Position numbers and translations under genes: made by a program. Shown here piece after piece: positions 8,912-52,814 of a stretch of 64,000 nt of DNA. The notes beneath the pieces are model-generated. The model had not been told where the DNA came from, did no database searches, and saw only the letters and a program-made list of their open reading frames with translations. The stretch covers positions 11,560 through 75,559 of the forward strand of contig CALMTS010000500.1 of NCBI GenBank assembly GCA_937872685.1. Reading direction: 5' to 3'. How positions within the stretch are numbered: the stretch's first letter is position 1; each line of letters begins with the position of its first letter. Origin of the DNA: an uncultured Desulfomicrobium sp. GTDB lineage: Bacteria; Desulfobacterota; Desulfovibrionia; Desulfovibrionales; Desulfomicrobiaceae.

Positions 8912-10258
8912 TCAGCGCATCAGGTAGAAGCCCAGATCGCTGTCGTAGCTTTTCAGGTCCGTGAACTGGCAGCCGACGTAGCGATCGTTGATGTACCTGA
9001 TGCGGACCGTGCGGGAGATTTCCGTACGCCGGGAGTCATCCAGGCGGAACGTGACCTTGATGATTGCATTCCGTGCCAGACGATGGTTCAGCAGCGTCGT
9101 GAAGCCGAGGCCGTTCAACGACAGGTTTTCGATGAGAAAATCTCCTGACTCCCCGGTTTCGGGATTCTTGAAGCCGCCGGCCAGTTGCACTTCCTTGCGG
9201 TAGTACTGGCGGCGCTCCATGGCCTGCTTCTCCTCGCTGAACATCTGGAACAGATTCGACGCCACGTCCCGGAATTTGCGGTAATTCTGGGTGTCGCTGC
9301 GGCATGACTCGCAGAGGCCAAGTATGGGGGCGACATCATCTTGGGTGGCGGTGATGACTTCCTGGTGCACGGAGAAAAAAGGCAGCTGCCGGGCGGCGGA
9401 CTGCTGCGAAATTTTGGCTGCCAGGCGGTTGCTGACATCCACTGCCGCGAGTTTGACCGTGTTGGGCATGATCACCGCGAGGGTGTCCGAATTGATGCGG
9501 CAGGGCACGTCGACCTTGCGGACCTCGTCCACCAGCACTGAGGCCAGGAGCTGCAGCACCCTGTCCATGGTCATCGTGCCGTGCTCCTCGTTCAACTTGC
9601 GCAGGTTTTCGAGCTTCAGCAGCACGACGCTCGATGGCAGCCCGTAGCGCTTGCAGATCTCAATCTCACGTTCCATGTGGCGGTCGAACGTGCGCTTGTT
9701 GGCCAGTCCGGTCAGCAGGTCGGTCTCGGCCATGCGTTTCATGGCCTGAAAGTAGTACGCCCGTTCCATGGCCAGCGAAGCGATGTCGGCCATGGCCGAA
9801 AGGTCCTTCATGTTCTGAAGGCTGAAGGGAGCGCCGCTCTTCGTGTCGATCAGTTCGAGGACTCCGTAGATCGCGTCGCCGCTTCTGAGGGGGGCGGCCA
9901 TGAAGCTCTTGCTGCCCTTTGTCTTGGCCGTCAGGAACAGGGACTGGAAGCGCGGGTCTTGCGCCGTATCTTCGATGAGCAGCGGTTCGCTGGCGTCCAC
10001 GACCCATCCTGCAATGCCCTTGCCCTTGCGCAGCTTCTTGCCGATGAGCAGCTCCGCCTTGTCGCCGAGGACGTGGCTGAACGTGAGGTCCCCGGTCTCA
10101 GGCTCCACCAGCAACGCGGCCAGATGCCGGGGGGAAAAATAGGCGTCAACATGAGAGCAGACGTCGCTCAATGTTTTCTGGATGCTGGCGCGATGCGAAG
10201 CCCCGCGTGAAATTTCGAGAAGAACCTGTATGCACGAGGATGCGGTCTGCGACTCCAT
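8912..10258 (-). CDS. GAF + degenerate GGDEF + PilZ protein (probable c-di-GMP effector)
   Basis: GAF (KGIAGWV, DPRF, APL); TDLLTGLANKRTF; RKVD I-site; active site reads NSDTL; PilZ RQYYR and NLSLNG. Confidence 0.8.
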   Translation of the reverse strand: MESQTASSCIQVLLEISRGASHRASIQKTLSDVCSHVDAYFSPRHLAALLVEPETGDLTFSHVLGDKAELLIGKKLRKGKGIAGWVVDASEPLLIEDTAQDPRFQSLFLTAKTKGSKSFMAAPLRSGDAIYGVLELIDTKSGAPFSLQNMKDLSAMADIASLAMERAYYFQAMKRMAETDLLTGLANKRTFDRHMEREIEICKRYGLPSSVVLLKLENLRKLNEEHGTMTMDRVLQLLASVLVDEVRKVDVPCRINSDTLAVIMPNTVKLAAVDVSNRLAAKISQQSAARQLPFFSVHQEVITATQDDVAPILGLCESCRSDTQNYRKFRDVASNLFQMFSEEKQAMERRQYYRKEVQLAGGFKNPETGESGDFLIENLSLNGLGFTTLLNHRLARNAIIKVTFRLDDSRRTEISRTVRIRYINDRYVGCQFTDLKSYDSDLGFYLMR

Positions 10259-50306: not shown

Positions 50307-51092
50307 ATGGCGGAAACCGATGCGCAACGGGCCCGGATCAAAGGGGTCTTTTCTTGCGAGAGAATAGCCAAAGTCGGGGCGGGAGCGACGGTCCGCAAGA
50401 CCACGCAGACCATGTACTGGTTTGCCGATGAGGATGAAGAAGGCCGGATCTGGATTCAACCCCTGAACCCGAACTACGTCCCCTCGGGCCCCAAGCAGGA
50501 AATTCCCCGGGAGGAGTTTCTCGAAGGATACGATCCCGAGCCCGAATTCTATTCGACCAAGGTCTATCCGAGCATCCGCAAGCTCAACCAGACCATCGCC
50601 AAGGCCGAGCGGCACAGATCCAACGGGGAGACGTACAGCGCGGAGATGGAGTACGGGAACGCCCTGCGCGTGGACGAGGAGAACATCCGCGCCAACTTCG
50701 GTCTCGGACTGACCTATCTGGAGCGGGGGGAGACGGGCAAGGCCGACAACATCTTTCAGCGCCTGATCAAGATGGAAGCGACGTTCGAAGCCGAGCACAA
50801 GCATCTTTTCAATGATTTTGGCATCAACCTGCGCAAGAACGAGATGTACGACCAAGCCGTGGAGTACTACGCGAAGGCGCTGGAACTGTCGCCCAACGAC
50901 GAAAATCTGCATTACAACATGGCGAGGGCCTGTTTCGCCAGGTCCGACATCGAGAAAACGGTTGAGCACCTGCGCAAGGCGCTGACTCTCAACAAGGATC
51001 TTGAAATTGCGCAGAAGTTTCTTATCTATCTGAAGAAGAACAATTTGTTGCCGCAGAAACTCTCCGGCGCCGAATCCACGTCTTCCGAATGA
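50307..51092 (+). CDS. Tetratricopeptide repeat protein with uncharacterised N-terminal domain
   Basis: TPR-like units (NFGLGLTYL, FNDFGINLRK, DENLHYNMARA). Confidence 0.75.
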   Translation: MAETDAQRARIKGVFSCERIAKVGAGATVRKTTQTMYWFADEDEEGRIWIQPLNPNYVPSGPKQEIPREEFLEGYDPEPEFYSTKVYPSIRKLNQTIAKAERHRSNGETYSAEMEYGNALRVDEENIRANFGLGLTYLERGETGKADNIFQRLIKMEATFEAEHKHLFNDFGINLRKNEMYDQAVEYYAKALELSPNDENLHYNMARACFARSDIEKTVEHLRKALTLNKDLEIAQKFLIYLKKNNLLPQKLSGAESTSSE

Positions 51093-51114: not shown

Positions 51115-52125
51115 ATGACTCGAGGCAGCGCTGTGACCAGAAGTGACAACCGACGAAAAATTGAACGCTTTTCCATGAGCGTTCCCTCGAAAGTGAGCGC
51201 GATCATGCACGATCACTCCGACCAGGCACTGACCACCAAGGACATCTCCGCTGGAGGGGTCTTTTTTGAAACCGGAATGACCTACCCGGTGGGCACGTCC
51301 GTGACCCTGAATATATCCCTGGATTTCGGCAACAGGAAGAACGGCCTGTTCCAGTCCCGGTTCCAGGTCGAAGGGACGGTGATCCGCGCCGAGTCCAACG
51401 GCATGGCCATCGCCTTTGATCCCGGAAAGGTCACGGCCATCCGTGTGAACTCCGCCGGCAAGGCCGGCAAGACTGGGCCCGCGATGCTCGGCGTCGTGGG
51501 CGAGGACCCGCTGTTGAACGACCTCCTGGCCGCTCGTCTCAGCCAGGAAACCGGGGCGAGCTGCAGCCATTCTCCCTCGTTGCCGAAGATACTGGAAATG
51601 GTGAAGCCGGATCTGACCCTCCTCGATTGCACGGGTTTTTCCATGGCGGAACTCCTGCAGGAAGCGGGCGGTGAAAATTCCCCGTTCATGACCACCTCTG
51701 TGGCCCTCTTCAATGTGCCGGAAGACCGTTCGCTGGAGCTGGAAGCCCTCAATACCGGCATCCGGGGGGTCTTTTACCGCAACGCGTCCTTCAAGGTCAT
51801 GGTCAAGGGCGTCAAGGCCATGCTGGACAACGAACTCTGGTTTTCCAGAGAGGCCATGTCCGCTTTTCTGCTGGGCAAGCAGAACCGTCCAGTGGAGCCT
51901 GTGCCTGCGGAAGAGGATCTTGGCGAATTGAGCCAGCGCGAAAAGGAGATCCTGCTCATGCTGGCCGCCGGCGCGACCAACAAGGACATTGCGGAGCGGC
52001 TGTTTCTGAGTCTGAACACGATCAAGTCTCACATCTATAACATCTACAAGAAAATCGACGTGCCCAATCGTCTGCAGGCCTCCCTGTGGGCGGCCAAGCA
52101 CCTTCGGGAATCGGAAAACTCTTGA
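51115..52125 (+). CDS. PilZ + REC-like + LuxR HTH transcription regulator (VpsT/CsgD-like)
   Basis: RKIER and DISAGG (PilZ); GIRGVFY...ELWFSR; LSQREKEIL..GATNKDIA...TIKSH (LuxR). Confidence 0.82.
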   Translation: MTRGSAVTRSDNRRKIERFSMSVPSKVSAIMHDHSDQALTTKDISAGGVFFETGMTYPVGTSVTLNISLDFGNRKNGLFQSRFQVEGTVIRAESNGMAIAFDPGKVTAIRVNSAGKAGKTGPAMLGVVGEDPLLNDLLAARLSQETGASCSHSPSLPKILEMVKPDLTLLDCTGFSMAELLQEAGGENSPFMTTSVALFNVPEDRSLELEALNTGIRGVFYRNASFKVMVKGVKAMLDNELWFSREAMSAFLLGKQNRPVEPVPAEEDLGELSQREKEILLMLAAGATNKDIAERLFLSLNTIKSHIYNIYKKIDVPNRLQASLWAAKHLRESENS

Positions 52126-52210: not shown

Positions 52211-52750
52211 ATGAAGATTTTGCCCGTGAACGAGCTGGACATCCAGCCGGAGTTCGATTTTTCCACGTTTCTTTTTCTGGCTCAGGTCGATGAAATCGGC
52301 CCGCAGGAAATGCTTTCCGTACTTGGCGTATGGGAGAAATGGCTGCCCAGCCTCAAGATTTATCAGCTTGGAGAGCGCAAGGGGTTCGTACTGGTCTATC
52401 TGGAGCAGGGCGTGGAGGATCAGGTCGATGAGATCTGGAAGGCGTCCCCGTCGGAAGGCTTCAAGCACGAGGCCATCGCCCAGACCATGATCATGGGCAC
52501 GCTCAAGGCGCTCATGCCCGAACTCGGGGAGAAGGAGTGCGCGCCTGTGCCCGAACCGACCAAGCCTCTGCGCCGGACCCTGGAAAAGATCGGCCTGGAT
52601 CTGCAGGAATCGGGCGCCCTGAACCGCAAGTACGCGACCATAACTCCCTACCCCCACCGTTACGGCTGCGAACGCTGCCACCTGAAGGACAGCTGCATCA
52701 AGAACATGAACCTGGACCTGAGCGGGATCATGAAGGGCAAGGCGGAATAA
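52211..52750 (+). CDS. Hypothetical protein with C-terminal CxxCxxxxxC; weak resemblance to stand-alone methionine-synthase activation-like proteins
   Basis: Good codon usage; CERCHLKDSC. Family resemblance from memory only. Confidence 0.45.
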   Translation: MKILPVNELDIQPEFDFSTFLFLAQVDEIGPQEMLSVLGVWEKWLPSLKIYQLGERKGFVLVYLEQGVEDQVDEIWKASPSEGFKHEAIAQTMIMGTLKALMPELGEKECAPVPEPTKPLRRTLEKIGLDLQESGALNRKYATITPYPHRYGCERCHLKDSCIKNMNLDLSGIMKGKAE

Positions 52751-52784: not shown

Positions 52785-52814
52785 AGGGCGGAGCCGGTGA
52801 TGCGGCTCCGCCCT
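52785..52814. terminator. Hairpin between convergent genes, probable terminator
   Basis: 12-bp perfect stem AGGGCGGAGCCG/CGGCTCCGCCCT; T-tracts weak. Confidence 0.6.

Follow-up and report, generated by a model that had tools for sequence, protein, structure and literature searches.

VpsT is the textbook example of a LuxR-type regulator that senses c-di-GMP, and the PilZ domain is the textbook c-di-GMP receptor domain. In the window, by which we mean the whole 64-kb stretch of Desulfomicrobium DNA that was analysed (64,000 nucleotides), one gene on the + strand (51115..52125) combines domains of both kinds in a single polypeptide. The question raised by this locus is what such a protein would respond to, and through which of its two putative sites. 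An earlier sequence-only reading, which correctly placed the gene in a sulfate reducer (the host is a Desulfomicrobium), had proposed a two-threshold or cooperative c-di-GMP switch for biofilm genes. The parts of this proposal turned out to stand on quite different footings, and they are taken up below where the relevant results are given.

Domain architecture and neighbourhood of the fusion gene

The gene is complete, as judged from its open reading frame and domain matches, and encodes 336 amino acids plus stop; sequence inspection revealed a GGAGG 7 nt before the ATG start. All four strings that had been pointed out in the protein were found, RKIER at R14-R18, DISAGG at D43-G48, GVFY at 218-221 and ELWFSR at 240-245.

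The PilZ domain occupies approx. residues 1-109 (51115..51441, + strand), and its assignment is based on Pfam PF07238, on an AF2 domain model and on Foldseek. The Pfam model covered residues 12-104 with 33.4 bits, above its gathering score of 22.5, and thus the N-terminal PilZ with intact RxxxR and DxSxxG was confirmed. The first motif is in fact of the RRxxxR form (R13, R14-R18; codons 51151-51168, + strand) and lies in the N-terminal loop of the domain, while the DxSxxG motif (D43-G48; codons 51241-51258, + strand) begins with D43, 25 residues past R18. The AF2 model of residues 1-125, built with 30 sequences, had a pLDDT of 76.6 and displayed a six-stranded beta-barrel (residues 24-109); the C-terminal helix typical of canonical PilZ domains was not predicted in it. 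When this PilZ-only model was compared with the PDB by Foldseek, the top 20 matches were all PilZ domains (E 5e-5 to 1e-3), mostly in complex with c-di-GMP, and the best ones included 4xrn, PA0012 (8u0i), MotI (5vx6), Alg44 (4rt0) and BcsA. The N-terminal domain is a genuine PilZ domain possessing both of the c-di-GMP-contacting motifs, and c-di-GMP binding is predicted for it. The Klebsiella pneumoniae MrkH protein (PDB 5KGO, 5EJL) is likewise a transcription factor that receives its c-di-GMP input via a PilZ domain. However, MrkH consists of PilZN and PilZ, has neither a receiver nor a LuxR HTH and binds DNA through its PilZ-type domains, and its fold match to the PilZ domain of the fusion was weak (E 0.02, Foldseek).

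The PilZ barrel is followed by a flexible linker (residues 108-121; 51436..51477, + strand) in which the AF2 pLDDT was below 50, and whose length and sequence differ among the fusion lineages. The next domain, a VpsT-like pseudo-receiver, spans residues 122-256 (51478..51882, + strand), and the alignment with VpsT places W242-F-S-R245 (codons 51838-51849, + strand) at the start of its helix alpha6. The C-terminal LuxR/GerE-type helix-turn-helix was delimited to residues 272-334 (51928..52116, + strand) by the Pfam GerE model and the VpsT alignment; the Pfam match itself covered residues 272-326 with E 2e-19. With the single full-length sequence as query the best PDB match was V. cholerae VpsT (3kln/3klo, E 3e-23), and when a profile built from 18 members of the family was used, VpsT was found at E 4e-37, residues 132-330 being aligned on VpsT 19-220. 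VpsT (3klo) was also the top Foldseek match of the full-length model (E 9e-14), which was matched by the CsgD receiver 5xp0 as well, with a TM of 0.74-0.76. Hence the order of a REC-like domain with GVFY and ELWFSR and then a LuxR HTH, as described earlier, was borne out.

The full-length AF2 model had a mean pLDDT of 72.5 and a pTM of 0.43, and its layout consisted of the barrel (24-109), the linker (108-121), the receiver (124-237), a helix (245-252), a second linker and the HTH (274-334). The pLDDT was low in the linkers, and together with the pTM this made the model uninformative as to the packing of the domains.

Two family models need comment. The Pfam model VpsT-like_REC (PF21155) reached only 18.3 bits, below its gathering score of 27, and matched residues 215-245 only; the receiver has diverged too far in its N-terminal half to be recognised by this model. 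Since PF21155 stayed below its threshold, the receiver assignment rests on the PDB profile and the fold matches. The best NCBIfam model was CsgD (NF007505; E 6e-31, residues 194-331) at 107.8 bits, and orthology with CsgD was rejected because the equivalog cut-off of that model is 250. CsgD of E. coli and Salmonella shares the architecture of a pseudo-receiver followed by a LuxR domain, but it has no PilZ. Nor is CsgD known to carry the W[F/L/M][T/S]R motif or to bind c-di-GMP.

The relation to VpsT extends to single residues. R245, L252 and H306 of the fusion align with R134, I141 and H193 of VpsT, which are needed for c-di-GMP binding, for c-di-GMP-stabilised dimerisation and for DNA binding, respectively (PMC3359988). 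The published VpsT motif is W[F/L/M][T/S]R (PMC6237807), and the earlier claim that it is present held, as the WFSR of the fusion fits the motif, is aligned with the W-L-T-R of VpsT and is conserved. The V. cholerae protein thus resembles the fusion in its receiver-like domain with the extra helix alpha6, in its LuxR HTH and in the motif, WLTR in place of WFSR. It differs in that it is only approx. 25-35% identical, lacks the N-terminal PilZ of about 110 residues and comes from another phylum than Thermodesulfobacteriota.

The receiver carries D171, which is nearly invariant, and in this clade the acidic pair E130-D131 follows beta1. These residues would speak for a common response regulator of the NarL type with D171 as its phosphorylation site, in which the N-terminal domain would be decorative and c-di-GMP irrelevant. 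However, beta4 ends in N200 instead of the T/S of canonical receivers, and in the PDB alignment the position of the conserved LiaR lysine is taken by R222, so that with both T/S and Lys replaced the canonical phospho-acceptor set is incomplete. Moreover, no histidine kinase gene was found beside the fusion gene in any lineage examined, and the protein is matched best by VpsT and CsgD rather than by canonical regulators. Since N200 and R222 occupy these positions and no kinase gene is nearby, the domain was read as a VpsT-like pseudo-receiver, and control by phosphorylation seems very improbable to us.

The fusion gene lies 22 bp downstream of a gene for a TPR-repeat protein (50307..51092, + strand; Pfam TPR matches and genus synteny), and is followed by an orphan gene of 179 amino acids (52211..52750, + strand; genus synteny). 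A consensus scan detected no terminator-like site on the + strand between these three genes. The same scan, which is the only basis for this feature, placed a strong, terminator-like hairpin of 12 pairs, 10 of them G-C, past the orphan (52785..52814, + strand). The TPR gene and the fusion gene are probably co-transcribed, in a unit that probably ends with the orphan. Neither Pfam nor NCBIfam had a family match for the orphan, and all of its 49 homologues came from Desulfomicrobium-type sequences. The order pyrF, TPR gene, fusion gene and orphan is invariant in the genus and confined to it, the gap upstream of the fusion gene being 19-22 bp throughout. At the Desulfovibrionaceae fusion loci the neighbours are unrelated (MCP, RND pump, FliD fragment), and the TPR neighbour is missing at the fusion loci of other lineages.

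The two candidate c-di-GMP sites

In 18 full-length homologues of the fusion, down to 34% identity, R14, E17, R18, G48, W242 and R245 were invariant, so was H306, and L252 was nearly so. Position 43 was D or N, both of which are allowed by the PilZ motif, and S45 was replaced by C in a distant branch. The PilZ motif residues R14 and R18 were invariant in all of the alignments A1, A3 (the PilZ domain alone) and A4. Of the 191 stand-alone VpsT-like relatives examined, 187 had the W-x-x-R pattern in the same column. On the level of the sequence, dual c-di-GMP sensing by the fusion is well supported.

Exceptions to this conservation were found at both sites. In two genomes of the genus (L023/P0055 and L024/P0056) the PilZ motifs are gone: there is an in-frame stop at the RxxxR loop, and PLSVGE or HISTDG is read in place of [D/N]xSxxG, while WFSR is retained. 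Conversely, several distant fusions have intact PilZ motifs and WYGG, HFSG, WYPD or WYSK at the position of the VpsT motif, and the fusions P0058 and P0062 have the proline variant WYPR, also with intact PilZ motifs. Since the PilZ motifs have been lost in some fusion lineages and the VpsT motif in others, each site must be dispensable somewhere, although in most lineages it is under selection. This argues that both sites would be functional inputs, partly able to substitute for each other. The reciprocal decay also means that cooperation of the two sites is not obligatory.

Those fusions, and those regulators of the unfused loci described below, that have a degenerate or proline-variant motif still go with intact PilZ motifs. 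One may therefore suppose that PilZ is the only working c-di-GMP sensor and that W-F-S-R has been kept for a c-di-GMP-independent dimerisation through alpha6. There is a precedent in V. cholerae QstR and V. vulnificus BrpT, regulators of the VpsT family that dimerise through alpha6 and act without c-di-GMP (PMC6237807). These proteins, however, have the proline variant WLPR, whereas the fusion has the canonical S form, and restoring T in QstR led to c-di-GMP dependence (PMC6237807). Furthermore, WFSR is invariant throughout the Desulfomicrobium clade, even in the sublineage whose PilZ motifs have decayed. We consider sensing by the PilZ domain alone unlikely.

The two genomes that retain the barrel after the loss of RxxxR and DxSxxG point in the opposite direction. 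If alpha6 were the only c-di-GMP sensor, the PilZ barrel, hardly or not at all involved in ligand binding, could be a module on which another protein docks, such as RNA polymerase, a diguanylate cyclase or the co-transcribed TPR protein, and the genus-wide synteny with the TPR protein would agree with this. But outside those two genomes RxxxR and [D/N]xSxxG are invariant, from Desulfomicrobium to fusions of 30% identity and to the PilZ proteins of the unfused loci. Such conservation speaks for ligand binding, since selection would not maintain the motifs otherwise. In addition, the TPR neighbour does not accompany the fusion in other lineages. A pure docking role of the barrel is thus quite unlikely in our opinion.

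On balance we favour the reading that the fusion is a phosphorylation-independent, c-di-GMP-controlled LuxR factor of the VpsT kind, to which a normally separate PilZ partner has been attached N-terminally. This appears to us somewhat more probable than all of the alternatives taken together. According to this model c-di-GMP would be bound by the loop and the barrel of the PilZ domain, and the RRxxxR form suggests that it may be bound as an intercalated dimer. For PP4397 and VCA0042 an intercalated dimer of this kind has reportedly been linked to the additional arginine of RRxxxR. Binding to PilZ would then relieve or alter an intramolecular contact of this domain with the receiver or the HTH. 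Since the AF2 model gives no confident arrangement of the domains (pTM 0.43), the intramolecular gating is pure inference. A second pair of c-di-GMP molecules would bridge two alpha6 helices, as in VpsT, and would give rise to a DNA-binding dimer or oligomer. With two sites of different chemistry on each chain, the response could be steeper or could cover two concentration ranges; the two-threshold or cooperative switch proposed at the outset is accordingly worded here as a reasonable inference.

Relation to a split pilZ and vpsT-like cassette

In order to find relatives of the PilZ domain alone, the alignment A3 was searched against one genome per species. The search yielded 56 loci, 12 of which were fusions and 44 stand-alone PilZ proteins. 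The latter are about 105-130 residues long, have both motifs intact and occur in Desulfobacterales, Desulfatiglandales, other Thermodesulfobacteriota, Spirochaetota and a few others. A gene for a stand-alone VpsT-like protein adjoins the pilZ gene in at least 15 of these 44 loci, and the adjoining proteins are 34-44% identical to residues 122-336 of the fusion (E 1e-30 to 1e-47). As a rule the vpsT-like gene is located immediately upstream of pilZ on the same strand. Within the taxonomic order to which the window belongs, such a pilZ neighbour was found at 3 of 7 stand-alone vpsT-like genes.

Of the unfused relatives of the regulator, P0060 from a MAG of Thermodesulfobacteriota is the closest. 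A pilZ of 108 residues lies 97 bp upstream of it, colinear with the fusion, and the identities to the fusion amount to 38% (PilZ) and 47% (regulator). Two further relatives were examined, P0067 and P0092. At the locus of P0067 the vpsT-like gene is followed by a 54-residue ORF, by pilZ and then by the gene of a 4229-residue beta-helix protein. No pilZ was found near P0092. Among 17 cassette loci the only genes in common were pilZ and the vpsT-like gene itself. When searched against the genome of the window, the cassette PilZ proteins matched the fused domain only (E 1e-10 to 1e-16); the remaining 11 PilZ paralogues gave no match.

The cassette neighbourhood and the sharing of the motifs identify the gene in the window as a "Rosetta-stone" fusion of a conserved two-gene cassette. 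The orthologous parts are 30-43% identical for PilZ and 34-47% for the regulator, and their motifs are the same, but the cassette consists of two genes, mostly vpsT-like and then pilZ, while the fusion is one polypeptide with PilZ preceding the VpsT-like part. The existence of this widespread pilZ and vpsT-like cassette, which the gene presents in fused form, is the main context, and it had been missed by the sequence-only reading. The comparative evidence for joint action of this PilZ subtype with the VpsT-like regulators is strong. In the unfused cassettes the small PilZ protein may act on the regulator in trans to the same effect. A broader formulation, which we offer tentatively as a possible and not yet a probable one, is that in Thermodesulfobacteriota and Spirochaetota a dedicated single-domain PilZ protein would be the sensing subunit or gate of a VpsT-like regulator, and that in Desulfomicrobium the two would have been welded into a joint ultrasensitive or two-threshold switch.

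The fusion is rare. In a sample of 401 genomes from the class the full-length form was present in 16 of the 17 other genomes of the genus Desulfomicrobium and in 3 of the 4 genomes of one Desulfovibrionaceae genus; in the rest of the order only the regulator part (about 220 residues) was matched. Among 1.84 billion representative proteins, a set made of clusters at 50% identity, the fusion amounted to approximately nine clusters with the full-length form and three or four with a partial one. The family profile matched 879 proteins at E <= 1e-30, and among the matches listed nearly all were stand-alone regulators. A few lineages beyond Desulfomicrobium and the one Desulfovibrionaceae genus have the fusion as well. 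A quick tree of the regulator module scattered the fusions and needed 8 changes, of which the starred branches forced at least 3, and a single fusion clade was not rejected by the AU test (p 0.46). The PilZ subtype shared by the fusions favours one or a few origins of the fusion.

The literature search agreed with the earlier statement that no characterised protein joins PilZ to the VpsT module, as none was found. A full-text search for a PilZ-LuxR, -HTH, -GerE, -REC, -VpsT or -CsgD protein returned no paper, and Galperin and Chou, in their survey of PilZ domains (preprint 10.1101/814665), mention no HTH or receiver fusion. A review from 2025 treats MrkH as the PilZ-type transcription factor and names fusions of PilZ to other domains as an open direction (PMC12564702). 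What appears to be new is therefore a VpsT-type regulator with a fused PilZ; neither a protein nor a partnership linking VpsT and PilZ was found described.

Targets and significance

The genome of the window has one VpsT-like gene, within a large c-di-GMP network of 29 GGDEF, 9 EAL and 12 PilZ matches, the fused domain being one of the latter. Targets of the regulator were sought by way of an element of about 40 nt (AAAATACGA..ATCATAC-N8-CGATTG), which is located about 100 bp upstream of the stand-alone pilZ genes and is conserved in the split cassettes. Neither the 64-kb window nor the sequence flanking any of the fusion loci contained it; in this respect the split cassettes differ from the fusion gene. 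The best match of its PWM in the whole genome lay in AT-rich DNA inside a capsular-polysaccharide glycosyltransferase gene, and was taken as a chance match. The scan with the cassette element thus yielded no target site of the fusion regulator in this genome. The T-box consensus of VpsT (PMC8754643) was too degenerate to be used as a query.

The neighbourhood was rejected as a pointer to targets as well, its order being restricted to the genus and the other fusion lineages having unrelated neighbours. The conserved neighbours are only the TPR protein and the genus-restricted orphan, and no support for biofilm targets was found in this genome. Biofilm genes as the targets of the protein, as had been suggested, are an analogy to VpsT.

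Together, the fusion and the conserved gene pair predict that small PilZ proteins bind and control VpsT-like transcription factors. The fusion itself would be a natural single-chain model for the way in which two different c-di-GMP sites can be combined in one switch, and the natural variants without one or the other site would be ready-made controls. It may also provide a starting point for the study of c-di-GMP-dependent transcription in sulfate reducers, organisms of importance for biofilm-driven corrosion and souring.

Genes flanking the fusion gene

The gene for the PilZ/VpsT-like/LuxR fusion protein is preceded by a TPR-repeat protein gene (window 50307-51092, +) lying 22 bp 5' of it, and the synteny of the two genes is kept across the whole genus. 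The listed ORF start of the TPR gene is 50148, while the true start is likely the ATG at 50307, right behind pyrF. The top NCBIfam match of the TPR protein was MamA-like and weak (E 2e-11).

Directly 3' of the fusion gene a 179-aa orphan gene (window 52211-52750, +) is found throughout the genus, followed by a strong terminator-like hairpin (window 52785-52814). No match of the orphan protein, which carries the Cys-rich stretch CERCHLKDSC near its C-terminus, was obtained in Pfam and NCBIfam, and homologues of the gene were confined to Desulfomicrobium-type sequences.

Other c-di-GMP genes and PilZ-decayed fusions

Elsewhere in the window a GGDEF match at about 9395-9730 (-) (G000:C500:20954-21289) covers just profile positions 1-112 of 161, and no PilZ was detected in that contig region when the whole genome was searched for this domain at E <= 0.001. 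Two GGDEF-EAL ORFs of equal length (1289 aa) and identical scores were also observed on other contigs of this genome (C166:7619-8863 and C304:20324-21568), reflecting either a recent duplication or a redundant assembly.

In two genus members with small genomes of 2.3-2.8 Mb (G259 and G230), the N-terminus of the fusion gene (loci L023 and L024) lacks the RxxxR loop and an in-frame stop is located upstream. The DxSxxG motif is missing as well, while a PilZ barrel remnant and the WFSR motif are kept. These fusion genes are a natural 'PilZ-dead' variant.

The conserved element of the split cassettes

Stand-alone cassette pilZ genes in Desulfobacterales, Desulfatiglandales and Spirochaetia are preceded, approx. 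100 bp upstream, by a conserved element that spans about 40 nt and reads AAAATACGA-N5-7-ATCATAC-N8-CGATTG/GTATTG. Copies were located, among further loci carrying them, at L038:2897-2936, L046:2857-2896, L058:2856-2895, L096:3906-3945 and L045:1297-1336, and twice in L049 (1357-1396 and 2819-2858). The best match in the window's genome, probably fortuitous, lies inside an AT-rich polysaccharide-synthesis island (L098, G000:C444, 97-1853). The island contains group-1 glycosyltransferase and Caps_synth genes, and its neighbours code for a histidine kinase with a PAS domain and for a sigma-54 activator.

In the split cassette L096, pilZ is directly followed by the gene of a 4229-aa beta-helix/NosD/SBBP surface-type protein (L096:4477-6645, continuing past the end), possibly a regulated adhesin. 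The element is present even where the flank holds no vpsT-like gene, and it may be the cassette's promoter or operator.
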